From contig JBAZUF010000001.1 in the NCBI GenBank assembly GCA_041661505.1, forward strand, positions 305,576 to 369,575: a stretch of DNA of 64,000 bases, read 5' to 3'. How positions within the stretch are numbered: position 1 is the first letter of the stretch; the number at the start of each line of letters is the position of its first letter. The translations under genes were made by a program, and so were the position numbers. Of the stretch, positions 42,332 through 55,194 are shown one piece after another. The stretch is from Patescibacteria group bacterium. GTDB taxonomy: Bacteria; Patescibacteriota; Patescibacteriia; Patescibacteriales; JBAZCA01. The notes beneath the pieces were generated by a model. That model ran no database searches. It worked only from the letters and a program-made list of their open reading frames with translations, and was not told the origin of the DNA.

Positions 42332-44884
42332 TTATTTTAGGGCGTTCGCATATTTATCAAACTCTTCTTTATAATTTGATATTGAAGCTTTCGCGGCTAC
42401 CTCAATTATTTTAAGTATATCGGGACTTATTATTCCGTCATCAACTGCTTTTTGTAATTTATCTTTTTCGCTCCATAAATGCTTAGCCACGCTTTCTTGA
42501 ATATTTCTTTTTAAATTTTCCTGCCCGTCAGGAGAATCGAATGACTTTAGAATCATAAGACCGCCGACATCAAGATGGAATTTGCCGGTAATGTCGTGAT
42601 GTCCGTAATCCAGACGGTTAAAATTCCTTGCCCTGTTTCTGGCATCCATTTTTCCGGTTTCAGTAGCGACAAAAGCGGCATGCTCAACTTCATTCATTTC
42701 TCTCCATTTTCCATTTTCCATCGTATAAGCGCCGGTAGCCATCCAATGATGGCCCTGCCTCTTATTCAGCATGGCGATTTCACTGCCCAAAGCAAAAGCG
42801 TCCTGCTGGGAAAGTCCGGCGTCCATGTTGGCTAATCGGGGATCTGCCTTCTTTTCCTCGTCGCTTAATGTGCCGGAAAAGGCCCTCATTAATTTTTGTA
42901 AGCCCTTAAACCCGGTATCACCGGCCAAAGGCTTAAGAAATTCGTTATCGTCATAATTTTGAGTCATCCATTTAGTAATGGCTTTTACCATAGCCTTATC
43001 TTTTTCGTTTATCGCGTCATTAAGGATTCTTAGTAATTCTGAAGAGTCGGTAATATTCCTAATTTTGGCCATTTTCTCATTAACCGCCGCCTGTTCCGCC
43101 GCTCTGGCCTGGAAATCATACATAGGAACGTTCTTGTCATATTCTTTTTGTTTCACTATGGCAGTATTTATATATTCGGCTTTTTCATCATCAGTAAAAG
43201 CCCTATTCATGTTATTGTTGTTTGTAGCGAAGTCAAGCTTACGCTGTTCACTGTCTCTCTCCTTGGTAAGCGCGTTTTTCTTTTCTTCATTTGTCTCGGT
43301 ATCAATCTGATCATCCAGATCGTCTATTCTCGTTGTCAATTCGATTGCTTTATCCCGTTTCTTGACTGCGGTTAGAGCCGAATATTCGGCTTCAAATTTA
43401 ACCTGGGGAAGTTCATTTTCAAGAACCTCTCTTCTTGCCGCCAGCCTCTTTCCTCCCAAAAATCTCTGTCTTAGTCCTTTCTTGCTGGTAACTTGCTCCC
43501 AAGCCGTTCCCGGCGTTCCGGTCATGGCTAAAGCACCGCGAAATGTTCCTTTCGTAGCCATAACTTCCTCGGCCTTTTTCATGCCGGAAGCGTACCTTTC
43601 TTTCTTTCTTTCGGCCCGTTTTTCCTTTATCCCGCCCCAAACTCTGGCTAAATTAAAGTCCACCCCTGTTTTTTCATGGGTCTTGTCAATTAAGAAGCTG
43701 CCCAATGCTCCGGCTCCTGCCGCGCCCAATTTAAGCGGAGCCATCGCCGCTTTTTGAGCAAGCCCCTGAACTTTCCCCGCCACCTTAGCCATCAGCCCGC
43801 CGGCCTGCTGGGCGACCATCAGCCCGCCCATTAGAAAACCGATGACGATAATGTAGGTTTGAAATCCTGTCGAGCAAAAAAATTTACTTAAACCGCCGCA
43901 CACTTCACTAGTTGAAATACCGGTTGATCCTGTTTGGAGAGTTCCGGCCGACCCCGTCGCCGTAGTTAAGGCTAACCAAAGAAAAAAAGCTAAAACCGGA
44001 CCAGTGGTAACGTATTTGGCAAATTCCGACCACCATTGGCTCGCGTATTTTTGGCCGGCTGGAAAAGCGGATAATAAAAACGCGGCCGGAGAAAGGATGG
44101 TATATATCCAAAGCATTATTATCCGGACAACTAAAACCGCAATCATCACTAAGATTACGATATCAGTAACAATCAAAGCAATAACCCCTAAAACAAGAGA
44201 AATTACTATATTAAAAGTTTCAATTTGTTTTGAGCCGCTGGCGGTATCTTTAAGAGCATCATTGCTTATTACTCCAATGTTCAATATTTGGGTTTTATCA
44301 ATCAAAGCCCCTTTCGAAGCGGCAAAGGCGTTAACAAAGGTAAGCATTATTACCTGGGATGCATCAATCATCAGCCCGCAGATGGTTTTGGAAAAATTTA
44401 TCAAAACCGCCATTATCAATAATTTTGGGAGTAGTTTTTTCGCGTTATAACTCTCAACCCTTAAAATCGTCGCGAAGGCGATAATTAAAAGGATTAAAAT
44501 AAAAAACATGTTGCAAAGATCGCGGACAATAACCCAGCCATTGGTAACCGCTGACACATTGATAATATTATTATATGAAGAAACCTGTAATAGTATTGCT
44601 GTTAAAACAGTTAAAAATACGCCAAAAACAGCTAAAAAAATCTGTGCTATCCAGCCCACTACTGTTGCTATTGCACCGCCTATGCCTCCGCTTACCGTAT
44701 TCCAAACCCCATTCCATCCGGAGGTAGTATCAGTAGAAGTTTTAGTAGTGTCAGTAGTAGTTTCCCCCGCCGCATGTATGCTATGCGAAGCAAAAACAAA
44801 AACGACGAAAAGCAAAATCAAGAAAGCCAAAATGTTTTTAGCCAACAATTTTCTATTTATTTTCATCTTATTTTTTGAATTCAT
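42332..44884 (-). CDS. Large polytopic membrane protein, VirB6/TrbL-like architecture, with a roughly 450-aa soluble C-terminal domain
   Basis: Signal peptide, Thr-rich stalk (GETTTDTTKTSTDTTS), then at least 6 TM spans with a pattern like VirB6/TrbL channel subunits. The C-terminal half is charged and coiled-coil rich. Confidence 0.45.
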   Translation of the reverse strand: MNSKNKMKINRKLLAKNILAFLILLFVVFVFASHSIHAAGETTTDTTKTSTDTTSGWNGVWNTVSGGIGGAIATVVGWIAQIFLAVFGVFLTVLTAILLQVSSYNNIINVSAVTNGWVIVRDLCNMFFILILLIIAFATILRVESYNAKKLLPKLLIMAVLINFSKTICGLMIDASQVIMLTFVNAFAASKGALIDKTQILNIGVISNDALKDTASGSKQIETFNIVISLVLGVIALIVTDIVILVMIAVLVVRIIMLWIYTILSPAAFLLSAFPAGQKYASQWWSEFAKYVTTGPVLAFFLWLALTTATGSAGTLQTGSTGISTSEVCGGLSKFFCSTGFQTYIIVIGFLMGGLMVAQQAGGLMAKVAGKVQGLAQKAAMAPLKLGAAGAGALGSFLIDKTHEKTGVDFNLARVWGGIKEKRAERKKERYASGMKKAEEVMATKGTFRGALAMTGTPGTAWEQVTSKKGLRQRFLGGKRLAARREVLENELPQVKFEAEYSALTAVKKRDKAIELTTRIDDLDDQIDTETNEEKKNALTKERDSEQRKLDFATNNNNMNRAFTDDEKAEYINTAIVKQKEYDKNVPMYDFQARAAEQAAVNEKMAKIRNITDSSELLRILNDAINEKDKAMVKAITKWMTQNYDDNEFLKPLAGDTGFKGLQKLMRAFSGTLSDEEKKADPRLANMDAGLSQQDAFALGSEIAMLNKRQGHHWMATGAYTMENGKWREMNEVEHAAFVATETGKMDARNRARNFNRLDYGHHDITGKFHLDVGGLMILKSFDSPDGQENLKRNIQESVAKHLWSEKDKLQKAVDDGIISPDILKIIEVAAKASISNYKEEFDKYANALK

Positions 44885-44904
44885 AGACGGAAAGACAATT
44901 TTCT

Positions 44905-45537
44905 CTAAAAAGCGAAGGGAATAAAAAACGATGCCAAGGCGGTGAGGGATCCAAATCCCAAGTCTACGATTGCCTTAAAGGGATTGCTAATCCATCCGGT
45001 TATCATCGCTACCCCGGAAATTAAAGAAATAACCCATAAAAAAGTCGAAATTGAGGAAAAAGCCATTACGATTTTTTGCCCAGGCCTTAAATTCAGTTTT
45101 CCATCCCTTAAAAATCTCCAGCCGGCCCAAACTATATTAACTCCCGGAATCGCGCTCAAAAAATAATTTAATACAATTTTTCCAAGCCCGCTTTTCGCGG
45201 CCTGGGCCGCTTTATTTGACTGTTCTTCTTCCTGGGCTTGCGCGTTTCTGGCTCTGGCCTGTTCTTGCCTTAAATTCCTCCCGCCACCCATATCGGCCTC
45301 TTGCCCCCCGCCAGCTCCTCCCAAACCTTCGCTCATGCCGCCCTCATTAGTTCCCTTTCCCGCCTGTGGCCGGTTTCCCAGCTGGCTTCCGCCCATCTGT
45401 CCGCTGATTCTATCTTTATTGCGGCCGGCCATCTGGTCCTCCTTTAATTTTCTTCCGGCTAGCTGGCTTTGAGCCGGACCGGAAAGCTCATTGCCTAAAA
45501 CATTCTGCCTCATTGCGTTTTCGTTTTGGTTGGGCAT
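44905..45537 (-). CDS. Membrane protein with a Gly/Gln/Asn/Ala-rich disordered N-terminal half and C-terminal TM spans
   Basis: 210 aa. C-terminal hydrophobic spans (IVLNYFLSAIPGVNIVWAGW, VMAFSSISTFLWVISLISGVAMITGW, LGFGSLTALASFFIPFAF). It shares its first 7 codons (MPNQNEN) with the next gene. Confidence 0.45.
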   Translation of the reverse strand: MPNQNENAMRQNVLGNELSGPAQSQLAGRKLKEDQMAGRNKDRISGQMGGSQLGNRPQAGKGTNEGGMSEGLGGAGGGQEADMGGGRNLRQEQARARNAQAQEEEQSNKAAQAAKSGLGKIVLNYFLSAIPGVNIVWAGWRFLRDGKLNLRPGQKIVMAFSSISTFLWVISLISGVAMITGWISNPFKAIVDLGFGSLTALASFFIPFAF

Positions 45538-45640
45538 ACAATTATTCGCTTCTCATCAGATTATCCTGAAAATTTTCATGCGACTCTACTTACGACTATA
45601 TCACGCGCCATACATTCAGACCGCCTTAAACCCGATTTCC
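45510..45640. repeat. Cassette-junction repeat, copy 1
   Basis: gttttcgttttggttgggcataca ... tatatcacgcgccatacattcagaccgccttaaacccgatttc is homologous to 46238..46350 (gttttcgttctggttgggcataca ... tatatcacgcaccacacagtcagaccgccttaaagccaatttc). Confidence 0.7.
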
Positions 45641-46269
45641 CCGATTTTCCGCCCTTTCTCATCGCTTGCCAGCCTGTTTATTATATCAAAAATTTTGGCA
45701 ATCTGCTTATTATAGCCGCGCTCCATTTTTTCAATTTTATCCGCCAAATCTTTATAGGAATAAACCAGCTTTCTTATCTTAACGAATGTGCGCATTATAG
45801 TTATATTCACTTCTATCGCCTTCTTGCTTTTTAAGACGCTGGAAAGCATAGAGACACCCTGCTCGGTAAAAGCGTAAGGCAAATACTTTATATTTTTGCC
45901 TCTTTTAGACTTTGAGGTCACAATTTGTGACCTTGAATTTTGCGAATTTTCGCTAACTTTCTCGTTCAAGGTCACAATTTGTGACCTTGAACGATCTTCG
46001 ATTATTATTCCCTCCCTTATCAAAAATTCTGTTTCCATCAACGTTAATTGAAACATAAAATCTTCCGGAAACCTTTCCTTATTTCTTTTTACCGCCTGAT
46101 TCAAAACCTTAGTTGGCACACCGTACAACTCCGCTAAATCCTTATCAAGCAATACCTTTTCTCCCCGCATTAGAAGAATTCTTCCTTCTATCCTCTCGAC
46201 GGGAATCAAGCTTGTCCGGCTGATTTTTCTATCGGCCATATTCATATTGTTTTCGTTCTGGTTGGGCAT
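45616..46269 (-). CDS. ORF6N-domain (KilA-N/Bro-N-related) DNA-binding protein
   Basis: IEGRILLMRGEKVLLDKDLAELYGVPTKVLNQAVKRNKERFPEDFMFQLT, a doubled R-S-Q-I-V-T motif, and LPYAFTEQGVSMLSSVLKSKKAIEVNITIMRTFVKIR. Confidence 0.7.
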   Translation of the reverse strand: MPNQNENNMNMADRKISRTSLIPVERIEGRILLMRGEKVLLDKDLAELYGVPTKVLNQAVKRNKERFPEDFMFQLTLMETEFLIREGIIIEDRSRSQIVTLNEKVSENSQNSRSQIVTSKSKRGKNIKYLPYAFTEQGVSMLSSVLKSKKAIEVNITIMRTFVKIRKLVYSYKDLADKIEKMERGYNKQIAKIFDIINRLASDEKGRKIGEIGFKAV

Positions 46270-46350
46270 ACATATTACTAAATCTCATGCATGAGCGCAC
46301 CTTTATTATATCACGCACCACACAGTCAGACCGCCTTAAAGCCAATTTCT
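46238..46350. repeat. Cassette-junction repeat, copy 2
   Basis: See copy 1. It includes the MPNQNEN start codons, the spacer and the IGFKAV-stop end of the neighbouring ORF6N gene. Confidence 0.7.
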
Positions 46351-46895
46351 TCTCTACCCGCTTTTTCCTCGTCTCGCGCCAAAAGCCTTAGCGCGGCGAA
46401 TATTTCCGTAATCTTCTTATCATGCTTTTTAATCCCTCTCTCCAATTCGTTAATTTTTTCCGCCAAAGCTTTATATGACAAAGCGAAATCCCGCAGTTTA
46501 ATGAATGTCCGGATTATGGCTATATTTATCTCTACCGACCGTTCGCTTTTTAGGACGCTGGAAAGCATGGCAACACCGTGTTCGGTGAACGCATAAGGCA
46601 TTTTTCTTGTGCCTCCCCAACTTGATGTCGCAATTTGCGACTTCAAGTTTGGCTTATCTTCGCTATTTTTACAACTTGATATGCCAATTTGGCACTTCAA
46701 GTTTTCAAATTCTTTCTTTGTTAATTGAAACATAAAATCAGAAGGAAAGCGTTCCGTATTGCGTTTTACTCCTCTATTTAATGCTCCTGTTTCAACCCCG
46801 TAAAGCAAGGCCAAATCCCGGTCAATCATAACTTTTTGCCCGCGAATCAGGTAAATCTTGGCTTTTATATTTTCGTATGGGATTATTTTAACCAT
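46326..46895 (-). CDS. ORF6N-domain (KilA-N/Bro-N-related) DNA-binding protein, tandem paralogue
   Basis: IKAKIYLIRGQKVMIDRDLALLYGVETGALNRGVKRNTERFPSDFMFQLT, KCQIGISS and KSQIATSSWGGTRKMPYAFTEHGVAMLSSVLKSERSVEINIAIIRTFIKLR. Confidence 0.75.
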   Translation of the reverse strand: MVKIIPYENIKAKIYLIRGQKVMIDRDLALLYGVETGALNRGVKRNTERFPSDFMFQLTKKEFENLKCQIGISSCKNSEDKPNLKSQIATSSWGGTRKMPYAFTEHGVAMLSSVLKSERSVEINIAIIRTFIKLRDFALSYKALAEKINELERGIKKHDKKITEIFAALRLLARDEEKAGREEIGFKAV

Positions 46896-46917
46896 GTCTT
46901 TCTATTCTCATAAAAAA

Positions 46918-49900
46918 TTATCTTTCCGTTACAACCACCCACCCGTTATACGGCTGGTAGCTATAGTCGTTAATGCAGTTTTTGGCCCAAACCGGGGTAT
47001 CGACATAATTTCCGCTCGCGTCAACCTTAAAGGAGCACCAGCCCCAGTTGTCTTTCACTTTTACTTTCGGCTGAACCATGCAGCAATCGGAATTAACCGG
47101 GCAACTCTCGCCATTTCCATCGCCTTTATAATTGCTGGCCGCTCCATTATTATTTCCGCAGTATATTTGATCACAGCCGATATCTCCGGCTTTGCAGGAA
47201 TATTTTTTCTTTCTCATGTCCCAATAATCGTATAAATGGAAGAGCGAATGAGGACTGGAAGTAGCCTCGCGGTCATACATCTCGACTCCGGTAATAGTCG
47301 TTGATTCTTTGTCGCCCCAAATTACGCTAAGCATTACCATTGGCAGTTGTTGTGAGTCAACAAAAGAGTTAAAAGTCAAGTTCATCAATCCGTTCTTAGA
47401 CCTTACGGCCTGGGAGGAAGCTTGCTTGTCAATCTTCAAATTTTTAATTTTGGGCGGTATGGAACAATAGTCGCAAGTCTTCGATGATCCCGCTTCGCAC
47501 GAAAGACAGCTTCCGCTAACGCCGTCATACCCGGTGCATTTCATGGTAGTGGGATTAAAAGTCGGCCTGGTAGCGCTGGTACAATAGATTCTGGGAGGCG
47601 TCCAGGACGGGGAGGTAGCTTTCAGATACTTTTCCGATGTAGCGTCCCAAGTCCAAGCCCCGTAGCTTTTCGCGAAAAGCCGCTTAACATAGACAGGTGA
47701 AACGTTGCTACCCGCCCTGGCTTCATCGCTATCCGAATCCAGCATTGCCAGCTGATCCCACTCGTAGGGGTTGTCTTCATATCCCGTGGGCGGGACGACT
47801 GATCCAAAGGGTGGATAATCAGCGTCATAATCACATGTTTTGGAATTATTACTGCAATAAACTTTATATTTGCTTCCCTTGTAAGCGCGCGAACTCCAAA
47901 ATTTATTTTGGCCGGTCGGAGTAACAACCTGAACAATATTTGCCGCGACATACATGGAAATTTTTTTTCGGTCTGTGGTTGCTGTTATATATTCTCCCGG
48001 ACCGCAGGCGGCATGTATATAAGTTATAATCGGCGTGGCTTTTGACGGGCAATAGTAATCGGTTGTTCCATCCGAATAGATTGACTCAACTTTAGTACAA
48101 TCTACCGCGGTTTCTGCGGCTGTGCCGAATTTAGGCTTACAACCCAAATAAGTGGTTTTTAGGGTATAGGAGCCGCCTGATTCGGAAAGCGAGTAGGAAT
48201 AACCGTAAGCACTGCCCGAAGCTTCGCCCGGACAGACTTCTGACGCGCCACTATAAAAACTCACTAGGTTTTGTTTCTCCTCGTTTGCGCATCCCTTATT
48301 ATCTCCAGGCGAATCGCAAGAAGCGCCGGTGTATTCAACTTTTGTTCCGACTTTAATCGGAATCAGCTCTTCAGTGTCGCAAGTATAGCGCTTAGTCATA
48401 TTGGTCGCGTAATAAAGAGGATAGCGGTTATTATACCCGGCGCCTTCTTCAATGCCGTCGCCTTTTACTTTATCGACCGGCCACCACATAATGCAATTCT
48501 TCGTTGAGCCCGGCGAACGGTCAAATTGCAGGCAATATCCGGGCCAGCCTTTTTCCCTAACTCCCGAGTCGTTAAAATAATCGCAGGACAAAGAATCCGT
48601 TTCCGGGTAGAGGCGGCATAATTGGTGCATATTAAAGGTCGACGGCGTCTGGCTGGGATCATTTGCCCCTTCAAGCGCCGGACGAAGTCTAATATCGTCG
48701 ATGTAGATATTTCCGGTGCAATCCCCGTCAGTCTGGCAAAGAAAATTGGGATCCGTCGTCATATCAACCGCGCCCAGCCACAAGGCTATGGTTCTGTGTT
48801 TAATTGAAGCGTCTTTAGAAACGGTCTTAAATTTTGTTACAACCGTATGCCACTCCAGCCCGGGAGAACTATAAGAATTGTCTATAAAAGCCTTATTATT
48901 CCAGTCGCTTGCGCTGTTTATGCTTATCATCGGATCATGTACCGTGACTACCGCCCTAATATCATGATGTTTGCCGTTGGACCTGAAATTCAAAGTGTTA
49001 ATCTCGTAGCTCAAAATATATTCGGTGTCTGGTTCTACGTCTATCTGTTCCGAAACCGGACCAGTGCTGAATTCTTCGCTGGAGTATTTTAGAAAGCTCT
49101 CTCCTTCTACTGGATAGCCAATTCCGCCCTTGCCGCTTATACCGGCTTCCTGCTGGGCCGCGTAAGGGCTGGTTATTACCGAAAACAAGCTGGAAGACCA
49201 GCTTCCGGTAGCTGGCGTCCAGCCGGTCGGATATTTATTGGTTCCGTAGGTTTCAAAATTTCCGTTCGGCACCCAGGCCGCTTCTCCCACCTGCTTCATC
49301 TGGCCAAACGGATAAAACCCTCTCATTCTAAAATCACTGCTCGTCGAATCCAGCCCAACTTTCGCGTATCCGGAAACATTGGCATATTTCGCGATAGAGG
49401 CCGAGTTTCCGGCGATCGCGGTCTGCATACTTATAGTTGCGGGGCTGACAAAGCCGTTGCAATTGCCGGATTCGTCAAAAGAATTGCAGGTGCCGATATC
49501 AAAACAGCTTGTCTTTTCTTTTCCATTTTCATCCTTGGTTACGACCGAACTGCGGCAGGTGAGCCACTTGTCGCAGACCCGGTCAGGGGAAACTTTAATT
49601 ATCTTGTTTGAATCCCAATTTCCCGGGAGTCCGGACTGGGGGGAAACGCTGGAGCTGGCGACCGTTAAGTCGGCGTCATACTGCAATTCCTCCAGGCCGC
49701 TTGATCCAAAAATTCTTTGGTTAAACAACACGCACCCTTTGTCGTAATTAATCAGCCCGTTACAGCTCGTATAATCAATCTTGTCCTTTAGCTGATAACT
49801 TATCATGGTATTTTTAACTACGACTTCATCCCCCTTTACCTTATTATATCTGATAACTTCGCAGCCTGTGTTGTCGGCCACGTAAAATAACTGGCTCTGA

Positions 49901-52900
49901 TTGTGCTTTGTCTGCACTTCGGCTGCCTCGCTCAAGCTCGAATCCGTCCCTAGCGCGAAAATCTTTGCCTCGCAAGAGACTCCGACTTTAAACTCGCCCG
50001 AAGAAATTTGGTTGGCGCGGATTATGTAAAGAGTATTATTTTGCAGGGATATTGGCTGTTTCCAGGGCCCGCTTCCAATCCAGCCGTCCCCATTCGTTCC
50101 ATTGCCGTCAATGTCCTGGAAGTCGCTATTGAAAACCAAATTGACCGAGGGCTTGCTCATCGGATCAATAAACTCGCCACAACCCGACTCGCTTGACGGG
50201 CAGATTCCGGCAAATCCGCTTTTTGTCTGGTCAATCTCCGCTCCGCCTTTGCCAAAGGTTCTGGGTTCTGTACCAGTATCGGTGCAATCATAGCTATTAT
50301 CGTCTTCAACGCATTTATAATAACAGCTTTTTTCTATGCAAGCGCCTTTCCCGCCCAAGCAGTCGCTTTCTTCTTCACAGGCCGTTCCGGCGGCTCCGCA
50401 GTCTGAATCGGTTTGGCAAATTTGCGTTTCGCCGCTTTCGATTGTCCCGTTTGCCGTTACATCGTCACAGCGGTTAATTTTCTTTTTCCACCACTTCGTT
50501 CCCCCGGTCAAAGTTTTATGTTCGCAAACCTGGTCGCCGGGGTCTTTAAAATAACTATAGCTTCCGCTAGAGCTGGATTTCCATTGGTCGCATCCCTCGG
50601 CGTCTTTTGTACAGAGCGTGGACGAATATTCGTCCGGGTCGTTAACCAGGTAAGCAGCGGTATGGAGGGTCTGGCCTTCATAATTATAATTTTTACCGAG
50701 CTTTTGGCATCCTTTGTCTTCGGAATTGCAGTTATATTTGGAATTATAGACCGCGTAAATATAACTGTCGCCTCCAACTTTCACGCAGTCTGCCTTATCA
50801 TTAACCGCGCCGGTCGTAGCGGTGCAATTGCCGTCGCCGTTAGCGTCATTCCAGATGCCGCCGCCAGCTTTAGAATAATTTTTCGTATCAATCATCAGCT
50901 CGCAGCCGATTGCCGATTCCTGGCATAACCGGGTAAAGCTCTTTAAATAGGCAATTTTTCCCGACTGGTCGGAATATTTGTCGCATGAAAGCATCTCCTG
51001 GGGCGAACAGCGGTTATTATAGCAAGTTTCTTTGCCTTCAGGATTATCAAGGGCGTTGTCGCAGGAAACCGGCGTTGTCCATGAATTCTTTATCAGGTAA
51101 TACCGGTCGACGATTTCCACCAGCTTAACGTCGTCTATATAGAAATCCGAGGCGGCCGAAAAAATAATGCTTTCATCTCCCTGGACCTTGGAAAAATTAT
51201 CGATATTATAGCGGTAAATTTTCCAGTCTCCGCCTTCGGCGGTCATTATATCTCCGGTCATCGGGGTAGTTGTTCCGTAGCCGTCAAGGAAATAAACGTT
51301 GATTTCCGCGGCTGAAGTTTTCGCCAAGAAAGTAAGCGTATAAGAATAACCGCTATGGAGAAGCGACTCGACGCTGGTGCCCGCCTTGGCGCCGTCAGTC
51401 CCAGCCTTAACCAAAAGAGACTTCCCTCCGACTTTTAAGGCGGTCGCGCTCGGCTCAATACTCGATCCGGAAAGCCCGTCCCAGCCGGTAAAATCTTGAT
51501 CCTCGTCAAAGCTGTTAGCTAGAATCGTCCGCATATTACTGCCCTGATTGCCCGAGTATTCGCGGCAGCCGACTTGGGAATCCTGACAGCTTATTCCCTC
51601 GCCCGGAATGGCCGCGTATAAGCAAGACGCCTGGCTGACATTCCATCTGCCGCCATTCTTGCAATAAACATACTGCCCCTCTTCAAGCAAACAGCTTGAC
51701 TTTCCTTCAGCCGCCGAATCAGAGCAGGCGGTAGCGCAGGCGCAGTAGTTCGAAGCGCTTCCGCATTGGTCCTCGCAATCTTCTTCTGAATATAAATTAT
51801 TATTTTCGCTCCGGCGGTAAGGATGGCAATTATCCGAACAGGAAATCGTCGAGGTATATAGATGATAGGAAATTTCTCCAGCCCGGTTATAAAACTGCCG
51901 GCAATTGGAATTATATCTTCCATCGGTTATCGGCAAGCCGTAAGTATATTGGTTGCAGTCGCCCCGATCATCATAAGTGACGGCCGGATCGTTATTATAA
52001 ACCGGAACGATTTGGTCGCTCGTATAAACGACGGGCGATTCATCCGGAGCGCCATTATCTTTTCCTGATTCATTGCTGTCAACCTGCAGATTAAAGACTT
52101 TCAGCTGGAAGCCTGACTCGCTTGAACCTTCCCAAGTATAAAATTCGGAGCAATTGGCTTTGGCGCTGGCCGGCACTTGGCAGGTCCCCCCGGTCGGGCA
52201 AACTTCGTTTTTACAGGGAGTAGCCAGGTCGCTTGAACAAACCAATTCCGGCTTAATGCACTGGCGGAGATAGGTATAATTCTGGCGGGCTTCTCCTTTT
52301 TTCTCGGCCTCGTCTAGGTTGGTGAATTGATCACAGCCGACCGCGGTGGCGGCGCAAATTTTAGCGCTTTTCGGAATAAAATATTCGTCGCGTTTCGAAT
52401 CGAACTTGGCTTCTTTCTGGATATAGGTATCATAACCGACGCATTCGGCCGGGCACTGGTCGGTCTTTCGGACGCTGGCCGGTATGCTCCCGCCGTCCTT
52501 TACCGAAGTATACATATTGCAATCAACTTCATCTTCGTTGCAGCGGCGGGCAAAATTAGAACAGGCGGACGGGGCGCCGGACTTTAAGGAATAATCCGGA
52601 GTGGCTCCGCTTGAATTTTCATAGCATTCAGAAGCGTAATAGTCCGGCATAAATTTCTCATAGACTTTTCCGCTGGCCTGATAATCGCTGTATTCCGTAG
52701 CGGATGCGCCGAATTCCAGTTTGACGGCGTCAATTAAACAATCCGAACCGCTAAAGTCCTTTACGCCGATTTCCAGGCTGTTGGCTTCGCTGGCAAACCC
52801 ATAATCTTCGGGAAAAGTATAGGTCAGGGTAAGCCTTTGCCAGCCGCTATTATCTGATATTAAATTCGAGGTTAAAAGCTCAAGGCTGTTATAATCATAA

Positions 52901-55194
52901 AAGCCGAATTTTCCTTCTGTCCCGCAATTTTTAGCCGACAATGAAAAGCTCAAGGTCCTGTCGGCCAGGGAATAATCGCTTAAGCCGATCGCTACCGGCT
53001 TTAATAACCCGCTTGAGTTAAGCTTTAAGGATTTGTTTTTGTCAGCCGCGCCGTCCGTCGATGCCGTTCCAAAACCGGACCAGCCGCCGACTGACAAGTC
53101 TTCTTCAAAGCTTGGATTAGGCAGTAAATTTACGCCGGCCACCTCGGTTGCCCGGATAAATTCGTGGCAGCCTTCGTTTGACTGGGTGCATTTAGCGGCG
53201 TTTTTATTCAAATAAACTTCTTTGCCGATTCCGCATTGCCAGCTAGCCGTACTACTAATGCCTGAAAGGCCTGTACAATACCCCCGGCAGCCGGCATTGG
53301 CTTCAGTGCATGAGCTAAAATCCAGAGTATTTTGCAGATAAGAAACCGAACTGCCGCTGTCGGACTTAAAGCTTTGGCAGGTATTATTTAACGGTTTGCA
53401 TGATTTTGTGTTAAAATTCCAGGTTCTTCTTTCTTCGGTGCAGTAGCCGTAAGAATTGCACGATCCGTCGGTATCCTCGTCAACGCAGGTCTGCTCGTCA
53501 GCGCAATAATTATCGTTTCGAGATATCTCCACTTTGCTGTCGTCCCCGTCGCCGGACGTTTGGGACGATTCAATTTCCGGCCCCGCCCCTTCTTTCCGGC
53601 AATAATTTAAGGGGGCCTTTAACACCCAGCCCGGGTCAACCATCCCCCGGCACCATTTGCTGTCCATTTTACAGCTTCCGCTCTTCAGGCTTTTGTAGTC
53701 AACCGCGCTTACTTCATCAAAGCAGTAAACCATATCGCCTAAAGTGCAGGAACCGACGCCGGAATTTTTTGAAATATATTGAGCCGCCAATTCCCAGCCG
53801 ACCGGAATAATCCTAAACTTTCTTAATATCACCATAGAGCGGTAAGGATAATCTTCATCCTTGTATTTCGGCTCGGCTTCAGCCGATCCGCCGGTCAAAA
53901 ATCCGAATTTACCGCTGGATTTTAAGTATCCGTCTTTTATAGCCTCGGCGACTGTAAGGCGTTTAGTTATTGCCTGTCTGAACTTATCGGTTATTACGCA
54001 GTTGGTCGGTCCGGCTTTTGAAGGGTTGGCGCAGACAGTAAGCTCGCTTAAAATATTATAATCTCCCCGGACGCCGAAACTCGGTTCAGTCAAAGACCGG
54101 AATCGCGCCTCGGCCGCTTCTATGCCTTCAGAAGAGGTAAAATCAGCGTCCGGTTCAGTTACTTCAATATCCGCGGTATAGTCTGAAACTAATCCGCTCT
54201 TTAGCCATTGCTGCATTAACTTGCCTAAAAGAGTATTAATAAAAATATCAATCGCGTCAGCCGCCGTGCCGGTGAATACTGTCTGTCCAAAAGTGGATTT
54301 CTCCCAAGCAGCCGCCTGCATAGTCCTTACCGTTTCAGCTGGAGTTTTAATCCATTTACTTATCTTTTCCGTAACCGCTTTCATTCCGTTTGCCTCGTCT
54401 CTAGTTTTTTCTTTGCTCTTGACGTATCCCGTGATATATTCCGTACTCCCGGCATTCATAATCAAAGCAATTCCAAGGTCGTTTTCATAGGGATTGAACA
54501 TGTTCTGAAAGTCACTTAAGAAAGTTTCACTAGATAGTTTTTCCTTCCAGTTCTTGGCCATGGTAGAGAATGAACACTTTGGTTTGCTCCAGGTTTTGTT
54601 ATAAAGTCCCAAGGCAATTTTTATTTTTACCGATATATTCGGATCACAGACGTTAAAGCCTTTCCACCAGCCGGTTGTATTGCCAATACCGCTTATCATT
54701 TTCTCCAAAAACGCCCCGGCGGCGGCATCGCCGGCATCAGCGATAAAATCCTCCCAACTGCTTTGGAAAAACATTGATCCCTGGCCCGTATCGCCGGTAG
54801 CGAGATAAGTCGCCGATTCGTAAGCGAATTCATTTAAAAAAGAACCCAATGCCGCTTTAAAAGCCGCTCCGCCGACCTCTTTTAAAAGATTCCACTTCTC
54901 ATCCCATAATTTCTGCCACGACCAAATCGTTGGCTGATTGGATTTTATACCCATTAGTGTTTTTAGTTGTGCGCTCAAAGATCGATTTGCCTGCTTATCA
55001 TCAACAGATACTGCTGATGGATCTGAAGTTTCACCATTAGTGCCAACCCATCCACTTCCGTAACCCTCCGACTGCGCGCTTGCAATTTTTACATTTTTAA
55101 TACAAAATAATCCTACAATAACAAAAACAATAAAAAGAATTAATACTGCCTTACTGGAACAATTATATTTATTTTCTACGCGCCTCTCAGTCAT
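46918..55194 (-). CDS. Giant (2758 aa) secreted/anchored cysteine-rich protein with four CBM4/9-like jelly-roll modules
   Basis: Uninterrupted 8.3-kb ORF with an N-terminal signal anchor (AVLILFIVFVIVGLFCI). My manual count gives about 116 Cys. Four modules open with NLLPNPSFEEDL..GGW (aa ~688), ILANSFDEDQDFTGW (~1222), NLVFNSDFQDIDG...GW (~1683) and VPNGNFETYG...TGW (~1974), and close with I(D/Y)IDD(V/I)(K/R)L-type strands. Confidence 0.8.
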   Translation of the reverse strand: MTERRVENKYNCSSKAVLILFIVFVIVGLFCIKNVKIASAQSEGYGSGWVGTNGETSDPSAVSVDDKQANRSLSAQLKTLMGIKSNQPTIWSWQKLWDEKWNLLKEVGGAAFKAALGSFLNEFAYESATYLATGDTGQGSMFFQSSWEDFIADAGDAAAGAFLEKMISGIGNTTGWWKGFNVCDPNISVKIKIALGLYNKTWSKPKCSFSTMAKNWKEKLSSETFLSDFQNMFNPYENDLGIALIMNAGSTEYITGYVKSKEKTRDEANGMKAVTEKISKWIKTPAETVRTMQAAAWEKSTFGQTVFTGTAADAIDIFINTLLGKLMQQWLKSGLVSDYTADIEVTEPDADFTSSEGIEAAEARFRSLTEPSFGVRGDYNILSELTVCANPSKAGPTNCVITDKFRQAITKRLTVAEAIKDGYLKSSGKFGFLTGGSAEAEPKYKDEDYPYRSMVILRKFRIIPVGWELAAQYISKNSGVGSCTLGDMVYCFDEVSAVDYKSLKSGSCKMDSKWCRGMVDPGWVLKAPLNYCRKEGAGPEIESSQTSGDGDDSKVEISRNDNYCADEQTCVDEDTDGSCNSYGYCTEERRTWNFNTKSCKPLNNTCQSFKSDSGSSVSYLQNTLDFSSCTEANAGCRGYCTGLSGISSTASWQCGIGKEVYLNKNAAKCTQSNEGCHEFIRATEVAGVNLLPNPSFEEDLSVGGWSGFGTASTDGAADKNKSLKLNSSGLLKPVAIGLSDYSLADRTLSFSLSAKNCGTEGKFGFYDYNSLELLTSNLISDNSGWQRLTLTYTFPEDYGFASEANSLEIGVKDFSGSDCLIDAVKLEFGASATEYSDYQASGKVYEKFMPDYYASECYENSSGATPDYSLKSGAPSACSNFARRCNEDEVDCNMYTSVKDGGSIPASVRKTDQCPAECVGYDTYIQKEAKFDSKRDEYFIPKSAKICAATAVGCDQFTNLDEAEKKGEARQNYTYLRQCIKPELVCSSDLATPCKNEVCPTGGTCQVPASAKANCSEFYTWEGSSESGFQLKVFNLQVDSNESGKDNGAPDESPVVYTSDQIVPVYNNDPAVTYDDRGDCNQYTYGLPITDGRYNSNCRQFYNRAGEISYHLYTSTISCSDNCHPYRRSENNNLYSEEDCEDQCGSASNYCACATACSDSAAEGKSSCLLEEGQYVYCKNGGRWNVSQASCLYAAIPGEGISCQDSQVGCREYSGNQGSNMRTILANSFDEDQDFTGWDGLSGSSIEPSATALKVGGKSLLVKAGTDGAKAGTSVESLLHSGYSYTLTFLAKTSAAEINVYFLDGYGTTTPMTGDIMTAEGGDWKIYRYNIDNFSKVQGDESIIFSAASDFYIDDVKLVEIVDRYYLIKNSWTTPVSCDNALDNPEGKETCYNNRCSPQEMLSCDKYSDQSGKIAYLKSFTRLCQESAIGCELMIDTKNYSKAGGGIWNDANGDGNCTATTGAVNDKADCVKVGGDSYIYAVYNSKYNCNSEDKGCQKLGKNYNYEGQTLHTAAYLVNDPDEYSSTLCTKDAEGCDQWKSSSSGSYSYFKDPGDQVCEHKTLTGGTKWWKKKINRCDDVTANGTIESGETQICQTDSDCGAAGTACEEESDCLGGKGACIEKSCYYKCVEDDNSYDCTDTGTEPRTFGKGGAEIDQTKSGFAGICPSSESGCGEFIDPMSKPSVNLVFNSDFQDIDGNGTNGDGWIGSGPWKQPISLQNNTLYIIRANQISSGEFKVGVSCEAKIFALGTDSSLSEAAEVQTKHNQSQLFYVADNTGCEVIRYNKVKGDEVVVKNTMISYQLKDKIDYTSCNGLINYDKGCVLFNQRIFGSSGLEELQYDADLTVASSSVSPQSGLPGNWDSNKIIKVSPDRVCDKWLTCRSSVVTKDENGKEKTSCFDIGTCNSFDESGNCNGFVSPATISMQTAIAGNSASIAKYANVSGYAKVGLDSTSSDFRMRGFYPFGQMKQVGEAAWVPNGNFETYGTNKYPTGWTPATGSWSSSLFSVITSPYAAQQEAGISGKGGIGYPVEGESFLKYSSEEFSTGPVSEQIDVEPDTEYILSYEINTLNFRSNGKHHDIRAVVTVHDPMISINSASDWNNKAFIDNSYSSPGLEWHTVVTKFKTVSKDASIKHRTIALWLGAVDMTTDPNFLCQTDGDCTGNIYIDDIRLRPALEGANDPSQTPSTFNMHQLCRLYPETDSLSCDYFNDSGVREKGWPGYCLQFDRSPGSTKNCIMWWPVDKVKGDGIEEGAGYNNRYPLYYATNMTKRYTCDTEELIPIKVGTKVEYTGASCDSPGDNKGCANEEKQNLVSFYSGASEVCPGEASGSAYGYSYSLSESGGSYTLKTTYLGCKPKFGTAAETAVDCTKVESIYSDGTTDYYCPSKATPIITYIHAACGPGEYITATTDRKKISMYVAANIVQVVTPTGQNKFWSSRAYKGSKYKVYCSNNSKTCDYDADYPPFGSVVPPTGYEDNPYEWDQLAMLDSDSDEARAGSNVSPVYVKRLFAKSYGAWTWDATSEKYLKATSPSWTPPRIYCTSATRPTFNPTTMKCTGYDGVSGSCLSCEAGSSKTCDYCSIPPKIKNLKIDKQASSQAVRSKNGLMNLTFNSFVDSQQLPMVMLSVIWGDKESTTITGVEMYDREATSSPHSLFHLYDYWDMRKKKYSCKAGDIGCDQIYCGNNNGAASNYKGDGNGESCPVNSDCCMVQPKVKVKDNWGWCSFKVDASGNYVDTPVWAKNCINDYSYQPYNGWVVVTER

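Follow-up and report, generated by a model that had tools for sequence, protein, structure and literature searches.

A conserved, covarying palindrome within the coding sequence of ORF6N-domain genes

Introduction

Two adjacent genes of the ORF6N family on contig JBAZUF010000001.1 of a Patescibacteria group bacterium (assembly GCA_041661505.1) each hold two palindromes within their coding sequence. The question raised by this locus is whether such palindromes follow from the peptide that they encode or are constrained as nucleic acid, and what keeps them symmetric. The stretch of DNA analysed, referred to as the window, is 64,000 nucleotides (nt) in length (positions 305,576 to 369,575 of the contig), and coordinates are given within it. 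Gene 1 (45616-46269, minus strand) is an open reading frame (ORF) of 217 amino acids, and gene 2 (46326-46895, minus strand) encodes a protein of 189 amino acids with an ORF6N domain and a C-terminal coiled coil. Both products match the ORF6N profile PF10543 (E=1.7e-31 for gene 1 and 7.6e-36 for gene 2; 108.8 and 122.7 bits against a gathering cut-off of 27.8). ORF6N is a very large family of unknown function, comprising 45,524 clusters at 50 % identity (E<=1e-3), and its members are annotated only as 'anti-repressor' or as defence candidates. The palindrome described here is almost certainly conserved throughout this family at the level of the nucleic acid.

Palindromes in the window

The four copies listed in a preliminary description of this DNA, namely aggtcacaatttgtgacct at 45915-45933, a perfect 33-nt palindrome at 45962-45994, gtcgcaatttgcgac at 46627-46641 and tgccaatttggca at 46682-46694, were all recovered, together with the peptides that they encode on the coding strand (RSQIVT twice, KSQIAT and KCQIGI, read from the ORF translations) and the complementary codon pairs TCA/GTG, TCG/GCG and TGC/GGC (checked in the sequence). 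The sites are as described but their extents are longer, each being an odd palindrome of approximately 31 nt, centred at 46634, 46688, 45978 and 45924.

Palindrome A of gene 2 (46619-46649, centre 46634) reads aacttgaagtcgcaaAttgcgacatcaagtt on the coding strand, encodes NLKSQIATSS and has 14 of 15 positions paired (expected 6.0, p<0.0005) in a triloop hairpin; as an inverted repeat with a 1-base spacer its arms reach 46616-46633 and 46635-46652 (18 nt, 89 % complementary). Palindrome B of the same gene (46673-46703, centre 46688) reads aacttgaagtgccaaAttggcatatcaagtt, encodes NLKCQIGISS and has 13 of 15 pairs (expected 7.6, p=0.0035), with inverted-repeat arms, again around a 1-base spacer, at 46667-46687 and 46689-46709 (21 nt, 81 % complementary). 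Palindrome C of gene 1 (45962-45994, centre 45978) is perfect over 33 nt, encodes RSRSQIVTLNE and has 15 of 15 pairs (expected 5.7); its arms at 45962-45977 and 45979-45994 (16 nt, 1-base spacer) are 100 % complementary, and its outer arm is a TTCAAGG/CCTTGAA variant. Palindrome D, also of gene 1 (45909-45939, centre 45924), has a perfect core at 45915-45933, encodes NSRSQIVTSKS and has 12 of 15 pairs; its left outer arm is of the palindrome C type and its right outer arm of the common type, which gives it a hybrid look. In all four copies the centre is the first base of the isoleucine codon in the motif NL(K/R)(S/C)Q-I-(V/A/G)(T/I)SS. The two centres are 54 nt (18 codons) apart in each gene (45924/45978 and 46634/46688) and the linkers between them differ (CKNSEDKP versus EKVSENSQ). 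The palindrome with a 23-nt spacer acts like a tandem repeat unit, of which relatives have 1 to 4. In gene 1 the stretch that separates the two palindromes contains a further small hairpin, tgcgaattttcgct (GCGAA/TTCGC, 45941-45954), which is present in the folds predicted for either strand.

Chance is excluded as the origin of these palindromes. The four copies have 13, 14, 15 and 12 pairs against 5.7-7.6 expected from their amino acids and local codon usage (p<=0.0035 each). The 15-nt core GTCRCAAWTTGYGAC, searched with up to 2 mismatches, has 3 matches in the window, all within the ORF6N genes (expected 0.20; none of 100 shuffles reached 3). The window's six strongest odd palindromes each have at least 12 of 15 pairs, and these two genes contain four of them. 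Either strand folds as two triloop hairpins, with z-scores of -6.4 to -9.8 relative to dinucleotide shuffles.

Conservation and covariation across the family

The family was sampled at 80 loci encoding ORF6N relatives, taken from contigs of one genome per species and containing 94 ORF6N ORFs and 111 motif copies; the lineages include Verrucomicrobia, Elusimicrobia, Bacteroidota, Nitrospirae, Planctomycetes, Proteobacteria, Cyanobacteria-related lineages, Acidobacteria, the Candidate Phyla Radiation (CPR) and others. The strongest odd palindrome of the whole gene falls on the same codon position of the motif in approximately 85 of the 94 ORF6N-like ORFs, and ORF6N genes carry 1 to 4 copies each. 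The consensus, AACTTGAGGTCRCAA-W-TTGYGACCTCAAGTT, spans approximately 31 nt, with a conserved CAAWTTG centre and covarying arms. Both arms are in frame within intact ORF6N ORFs in approximately 90 genes, as in the coding palindromes of PMC6649704. These results show that an ancient palindrome is set in the hinge of the ORF6N domain-coding sequence of essentially every family member, and that the 'signature' peptide NL(K/R)(S/C/F)Q(I/F)(V/A/G)(T/I)SS is largely the translation of this palindrome.

A null model that keeps the peptide and samples codons according to local usage predicts pairing at 6.2 of 15 positions, and the observed mean is 13.0 (Z=44, n=111 copies), with p<0.05 at 110 of the 111 copies. 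In a fixed-register alignment 90 % of cells are paired, compared with 73.6 % after shuffling and 24-44 % in controls with displaced partners. Covariation scores 0.429, a value that none of 500 shuffles reached (0.150 in shuffles). Two-sided changes occupy 266 cells (98.5 in shuffles) and 11 of 14 pairs vary on both sides. Between nearest-neighbour genes there were 105 compensated and 101 one-sided changes, the former being approximately nine times the expectation under independence. The A-T and C-G pairs adjoining the triloop are invariant, and those at distances 4, 5, 7, 8, 10, 11 and 13 from the centre each occur in two or three Watson-Crick forms.

The paired changes are often non-synonymous: TTG (L) goes with TCA-A (S), TGG (W) with TCC-A, and TTA with CTT-AA. 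The result is a covariation at the protein level, in which the need for codons to pair couples S to V or A, and C or F to G; likewise, the I/F alternative of the motif arises because the central base is A or T. The preliminary description had proposed a nucleic-acid-level constraint on pairing and had set a family-wide codon analysis beforehand as the test that could refute it. The constraint is upheld by the codon null, by the excess of two-sided changes and by the second-frame reading described below, and palindromy is well above what amino-acid conservation and codon usage would give. The further argument that a fixed protein site would not covary in this way was too strong, since a symmetric dimer site keeps its halves alike and template switching would symmetrise positions that are not contacted. 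Covariation alone is no proof of selection for a fold, because template switching homogenises arms (PMC8794818) and is visibly active here as flips of the central base.

Constraint on the nucleotides

The same core, GGTCRCAAWTTGYGACC, occurs at the same place of the gene but is read one base out of frame in some bona fide ORF6N proteins, where it encodes ELVTNCDQL, EEVANCDHL or ELVANCDRL instead of LRSQIVTS. These three match PF10543 with E=4e-30, 1e-17 and 3e-34, and second-frame proteins score 64-118 bits on the profile (cut-off 27.8). Among 80 gut-metagenome relatives of one second-frame gene, the arms change from CTGGTCAC/GTGACCAG to CTTATCAC/GTGATAAG, two compensated pairs that replace V by I and Q by K; compensatory change of GG/CC to TA/TA is found in second-frame genes as well. 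Programmed frameshifting was considered as a reason for the two frames and dropped, there being no slippery site and only one frame per gene.

In AlphaFold models the encoded peptide forms a helix end and the least confident loop of the domain, with a mean predicted local distance difference test (pLDDT) score per 10-residue block of 36 at the peptide in a two-copy window protein and 64 in a one-copy relative. Over loci whose G+C content ranges from 32 to 70 %, the G+C content of third codon positions (GC3) outside the palindrome increases from 0.31 to 0.71 in step with the genome (r=0.93), while in the 11 palindrome codons it is flat at 0.45-0.49 (r=0.09). The constraint acts on the nucleotides and not on the peptide.

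DNA or RNA and the role of template switching

Of the two media proposed in the preliminary description, mRNA and single-stranded DNA (ssDNA), the data favour a hairpin or cruciform of DNA and disfavour mRNA. Non-Watson-Crick pairs on the sense strand comprise 38 G:T or T:G and 55 A:C or C:A, with no wobble bias; an mRNA fold is disfavoured because RNA should tolerate G:U far better than A:C, and neither G:T nor A:C should be tolerated if a structure matters on both strands or if the symmetry of the duplex itself is what counts. No Rfam 15 family matched at E<=1 between 44500 and 47500 of the window, and none matched the hairpins of 12 related loci, so that of the usual marks of a structured RNA of the Rfam type only stem covariation was found, a match to a curated model and a preference for G:U being absent. 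A terminator scan of 44800-47200 reported none of the four hairpins, and no U-run follows those of the window.

At the centre, A is found in 62 copies and T in 46. Of 44 nearest-neighbour pairs, 7 differ at this base, or 0.16 per pair against 0.023 for the average site (approximately sevenfold), although A<->T changes account for just 7 % of the differences elsewhere; at least five groups of viral sequences contain copies that are identical apart from a flip of the centre. Template switching during replication copies one arm onto the other and has inversion of the spacer as its hallmark (PMC8794818, PMC8604942); the flips therefore indicate that the DNA behaves as a hairpin or cruciform in vivo. 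The same process creates and maintains perfect stems and yields multibase 'compensatory' changes (PMC8794818; PMC8604942), and part of the compensation is probably mutational and not the product of two independent selected substitutions. Together, these observations point to a DNA-level hairpin or cruciform with template switching and not to a structure of mRNA only.

Copies outside the coding position

At least 10 of the 80 genome loci (among them L025, L035, L053, L055, L065, L072, L076, L078 and L080) have an additional copy of the palindrome, located 9-170 nt ahead of the codons for the ORF6N N-terminus. Solo and internal copies usually have the inner TCRCAA half-site in common, and their outer positions may differ. 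Many gut contigs of Bacteroides type that hold a solo copy have the order integrase gene, solo palindrome, ORF6N gene and radC-like gene. In human-gut contig L271 (192-2718), its relatives L256-L335 and the L099 group these are a tyrosine integrase, the solo palindrome, a second-frame ORF6N gene and a radC-like JAB gene, with 23 nt between the stop codon of the integrase gene and the palindrome and 54 nt between the palindrome and the ATG of the ORF6N gene; in L325-L328 a third palindrome follows approximately 20 nt past the ORF6N stop codon (position 2023). Gene fragments that end or start at the palindrome were found at L005 (N-terminal half only) and L036 (C-terminal half only). At L078 (2900-3010) a solo palindrome is followed by 'RLNYAFTNF', resembling the start of the C-terminal half (LPYAFTEQ), and this copy looks like the remnant of a second ORF6N gene truncated approximately 12 codons past the palindrome.

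In viral contigs the 17-nt core was found at 120 or more loci, compared with 37 and 18 for two composition-matched control palindromes, and the 21-nt form GAGGTCRCAAWTTGYGACCTC at 54 loci against approximately 0.1 expected by chance, as calculated from the approximate size of the viral collection. Approximately one third of the viral GAGGTCRCAAWTTGYGACCTC copies lie in ORF6N genes and two thirds outside them, the rest being intergenic; none of 55 control-palindrome loci contained an ORF6N gene. Many intergenic viral copies are flanked by A- and T-runs in the manner of bidirectional terminators, and some are perfect ORF6N-type palindromes of 25-31 nt with no ORF6N sequence within 700 nt. Viral copies inside genes for ribonucleotide reductase, a PD-(D/E)XK nuclease and a glycosyltransferase were judged to be chance matches. 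Searches of GenBank phages gave only 5 matches, weak and unannotated.

Two groups of phage contigs (L082, L104, L125, L131, L141, L175, L346, L355, L357 and L358; L097, L336, L350 and L356) use GAGGTCRCAAWTTGYGACCTC with A- and T-runs as an apparent intrinsic terminator, with G:U wobble on the strand of the T-run. Hairpins tipped by CAAWTTG on other stems were also seen in phage loci, control loci included (L248, L243, L193), and this tip seems to be favoured in some phage lineages. On viral contig L166 an anti-repressor gene of the Bro-N plus KilAC type (Bro-N/ANT) has GGGGTCGCAAATTGCGACCTC, translated as KLGSQIATSGQ, in the place that corresponds to the ORF6N motif, which is either chance or a hint that related families of KilA-N type share the element.

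Possible explanations

The roles suggested in the preliminary description, a recombination signal, a processing site or autoregulation, are candidates only. The explanation tentatively favoured here is that the palindrome is a putative binding site of the gene's own ORF6N product, carried within the gene. The DNA would form hairpin or cruciform intermediates, template switching during replication would flip the centre and copy one arm onto the other, and selection would then keep the symmetric result; selection on the result is suggested because synonymous sites in the 11 palindrome codons ignore genome G+C content. The palindrome would be a cis-acting DNA site that travels with a solitary, promoter-less, horizontally mobile gene. 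No partner gene is conserved beside ORF6N (145 flanking genes match more than 120 Pfam families, mostly housekeeping), so any specific reader would be ORF6N itself or a universal host factor. The reader proposed is the ORF6N product, a winged-helix-like domain on a coiled-coil stalk, which would be a symmetric oligomer because its DNA-binding domain sits on a coiled coil. Self-binding would give feedback control independent of genomic context. The solo copies found in mobile elements and upstream of some ORF6N genes would serve as additional sites, and positions that the protein does not contact would owe their symmetry to template switching. The layout resembles that of an operator for a gene's own product, of the type of parS in parB, in that the palindrome lies inside the gene, copies lie upstream and the C-terminus is a coiled coil, with binding putative. 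It is more doubtful that, in a wider sense, the most conserved motif of the family is no protein feature but the translated shadow of a DNA cruciform or hairpin cis-site, the genes being drop-in 'gene plus operator' modules and the freed intergenic copies of phages and mobile elements being targets of a candidate defence or anti-repressor family.

Several points weigh against a self-carried site. Symmetry over approximately 26-31 bp, including freely varying positions, exceeds the contacts expected of a dimer of a domain of approximately 90 amino acids, and for this reason the model needs template switching in addition; template switching plus amino-acid constraint could alone hold the synonymous sites. 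A roadblock inside a gene embedded in an operon would also hit downstream host genes. Solo and internal copies differ at variable positions in L053, L055 and L076, an upstream copy is present at only about 12 % of loci, and the 64-kb window has no further palindrome site outside its ORF6N genes.

An explanation that we regard as unlikely is that the palindrome perpetuates itself without function: one ancestral inverted duplication would be re-symmetrised faster than mutation breaks it, the protein merely tolerating the outcome, and solo copies would be fossils of dead ORF6N genes that have outlived their flanks. Perfect stems are known to be maintained by template switching (PMC8794818, PMC8604942), and the approximately sevenfold rate of spacer inversion, the mismatch spectrum without strand bias, the symmetry over all 31 nt regardless of sequence and the truncated or solo copies that keep perfect arms with the flanking ORF6N sequence gone (L005, L036, L035, L111, L339) all agree with it. 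Left unexplained are the recurring extra copies at ORF6N 5' ends, and the fact that two reading frames, non-coding solo copies and terminator-like hairpins of phages all have the inner core GGTCRCAAWTTGYGACC in common, with a frequency at least 3 to 7 times that of composition-matched control palindromes. The palindrome synonymous sites also resist the GC3 shift of 0.31-0.71, which amino-acid constraint with homogenisation could equally produce. To our knowledge no comparable family-wide coding palindrome exists in bacteria, though template switching is universal, and this too counts against a functionless palindrome. An origin as a by-product of amino-acid conservation and codon usage, or as an artefact of duplicate copies, has next to no probability: the peptide motif is conserved and the two copies of gene 1 are recent duplicates of each other, but the excess of pairs with amino acids fixed, its significance at all but one of the 111 sites, the survival of the palindrome in non-coding copies and in genes that read it in the other frame, and paired changes that alter the amino acids themselves contradict it, and the codon null, the second-frame genes and the covariation test refute it.

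It is improbable that the palindrome is a structure-specific site of recombination or mobilisation at which ORF6N genes or their halves are exchanged, duplicated or inserted. Such a site would explain why the genes are distributed like cassettes, alone or in tandem: individual ORF6N genes stand inserted between unrelated housekeeping genes (nuo genes at L001), tandem arrays are common (the window, L007, L053), fragments begin or stop exactly at the palindrome (L005, L036), 'hybrid' palindromes have unlike arm types (palindrome D of the window, L003, L051) and an integrase gene stands directly upstream of the solo copy in gut contigs. Against it, no recombinase is conserved among the 145 neighbouring genes, the duplication junction of the window lies at MPNQNEN and not at the palindrome, the junctions of arrays include intergenic DNA as in local duplication, the DNA downstream of the genes yielded neither conserved ends nor att-like motifs, and the element has 31 nt without R or L boxes, unlike integron attC. 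No N-terminal half was inverted relative to its C-terminal half in the assembled loci, a weak point since assemblies rarely show a minor orientation, and only the central base was seen in both states, which is not the pattern of an inverton. The identities of N- and C-terminal halves are weakly correlated (r=0.40, a few pairs being outliers), which speaks for neither side given such short segments and such divergent sequences. A hairpin of the mRNA coding region, serving as an RNase site, ribosome pause, stability element or site for an RNA-binding protein, likewise has a low probability. Strong predicted hairpins (z -6.4 to -8.0 on the sense strand), strong covariation and the use of the same core as a terminator-like hairpin with a T-run in many phage contigs, with G:U wobble on the transcribed strand, speak for it; the lack of a sense-strand G:U preference in ORF6N genes, of a U-run after the window hairpins and of an Rfam match in the window and 12 related loci speaks against it, as does the flip of the centre, which is a phenomenon of DNA replication.

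The window locus and its proteins

The product of gene 2 is identical to an 'ORF6N domain-containing protein [Patescibacteria group bacterium]' at NCBI, a protein of a metagenome-assembled genome (MAG). The PADLOC PDC-S05 hidden Markov models (HMMs) were matched by both window proteins (E=6e-60 for gene 2 and 6e-54 for gene 1), ORF6N proteins match 'anti-repressor' families of PHROG, and the one experimental test of PDC-S05 that was found, in a preprint, reports protection of E. coli by a member carrying a RhuM domain; in PADLOC the ORF6N proteins described here are candidates only for a role in defence. The C-terminal half is predicted to be a long helix or coiled coil from both the sequence and AlphaFold models. 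A sequence search of the PDB matched only the coiled-coil tail, and a Foldseek search of the PDB gave no match at E<0.6, the nearest structures being winged-helix Ski/Dachshund domains at low probability.

The first seven codons of the gene 1 ORF (MPNQNEN) duplicate the start of the next gene downstream, and for this reason its true start may be the ATG at 46245 or 46239. Two direct repeats cover the junctions on the minus strand: each copy joins the last codons of an ORF6N gene (EIGFKAV*) to an 'MPNQNEN' start by way of intergenic DNA, the gene being gene 2 in copy 1 (46242-46349) and gene 1 in copy 2 (45510-45639), where the start is that of a gene of 210 amino acids (44905-45537). The repeats are 88 % and 87 % identical, far better conserved than the gene bodies (53 % amino-acid identity between genes 1 and 2), and they are the trace left when the ORF6N unit was duplicated locally in tandem. 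Tandem arrays in the window, at L007 (four genes) and at L053 each have their own conserved junction; array-specific junctions indicate local duplication and not insertion of cassettes at a universal site. The four tandem genes of L007 (1756-4126, an Omnitrophota contig) have near-identical intergenic junctions, and their palindrome variants all differ (ISHFAIS, RCQFGIL, RCQIGMS, MSQIAIS). At L001 the ORF6N gene stands between two genes for NADH-dehydrogenase antiporter-like (nuo) subunits, with gaps of 3 and 0 nt.

In the window the ORF6N pair is flanked by a giant Cys-rich ORF of 2758 amino acids (46918-55194) and by the Gly/Gln-rich ORF of 210 amino acids (44905-45537, minus strand), which has no family match, and beyond the latter lies a multi-pass membrane protein of 850 amino acids (42332-44884). 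All of these are close-packed on the minus strand and form a large co-oriented gene block. The coding-strand 3' neighbour of palindrome A (46595-46620) contains conserved WGG codons that read GGGGAGG, a Shine-Dalgarno-like sequence located in gene 2 at 9 nt ahead of an in-frame ATG (the M of RKMPYAFTE). An internal start at this site was considered and dropped, as members that read the palindrome in the other frame lack GGGGAGG.

Significance

Conserved residues of Pfam domains are usually read as structural or catalytic, and here the covariation of amino acids stems from base pairing. A hallmark peptide imposed by a DNA palindrome provides a specific 31-nt handle on ORF6N that is open to synonymous recoding, binding assays and searches of phage genomes. 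The palindrome is also a natural experiment in the coexistence of coding sequence and DNA secondary structure, and illustrates the extent to which template switching can conserve palindromes through long evolutionary periods. If the self-carried site is real, a protein and its binding site would be encoded by the same 31 nucleotides, and ORF6N modules could be inserted in any operon.

Comparison with known systems

The ORF6N literature that was searched contains no mention of a palindrome, no relevant report of a palindrome, hairpin or cruciform was found for KilA-N, and the Rfam searches of the window and of 12 related loci gave no match at the hairpins. The model for the proposed self-carried site is parS, a 16-bp palindrome of fixed, non-covarying sequence within parB/spo0J that is conserved across phyla and for which binding by ParB has been demonstrated. 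The putative ORF6N site likewise lies inside its own gene, but differs in its symmetry of approximately 31 nt, its variable arms and its putative binding. A cis-acting structure inside the gene of its own initiator is also known from IR-II in repC of pT181 and from the origin in gene A of phiX174 and P2, where the initiators are HUH or Rep nickases acting on replicons. As in these systems, the ORF6N site and protein move together; unlike them, ORF6N proteins have no nuclease motifs and are encoded by single chromosomal genes.

Integron attC sites are 57-141 nt in length, have R''/L''/L'/R' boxes and extrahelical bases, stand at the 3' end of a cassette and need IntI, and the end hairpins of IS200/IS605 are subterminal and need TnpA. 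Both are structure-recognised sites tied to small mobile cassettes and resemble the ORF6N palindrome in their covarying stems and few fixed bases. The ORF6N element has approximately 31 nt in the middle of a gene, no integrase family is conserved among the 145 neighbours, and the loci have neither the enzyme nor the architecture of attC or IS200/IS605. Rickettsia palindromic elements, of 100-150 bp, are inserted in frame in many unrelated genes of one genus and encode a tolerated peptide. The ORF6N palindrome is similarly palindromic DNA translated in frame, but is approximately 31 nt in length, tied to one family and accompanied by intergenic copies.

In the mitochondria of Nematomorpha, coding palindromes occur as inverted repeats of up to 284 bp in functional protein genes, their function being unknown (PMC6649704). 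There, as here, both arms are coding, and a compromise between protein sequence and nucleic-acid structure is forced. The Nematomorpha repeats are long, numerous and lineage-specific and are spread across many genes of one genome, whereas the ORF6N element is one short palindrome at a fixed position of one family across phyla, with two frames, compensatory covariation and solo non-coding copies. Hairpins maintained by template switching (Mönttinen and Löytynoja 2022, PMC8794818; in yeast, PMC8604942) match the A/T flips of the centre and the excess of two-sided changes, and the homogenisation of inverted-repeat arms and the inversion of spacers have been described in coding genes of yeast (PMC8604942). 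Those cases are RNA genes and sporadic inverted repeats, whereas the ORF6N palindrome is one site of a family with approximately 45,000 clusters. What is new relative to all of the systems compared is a single short palindrome that is fixed at one position of a bacterial protein family, is read in two frames and is accompanied by solo copies.

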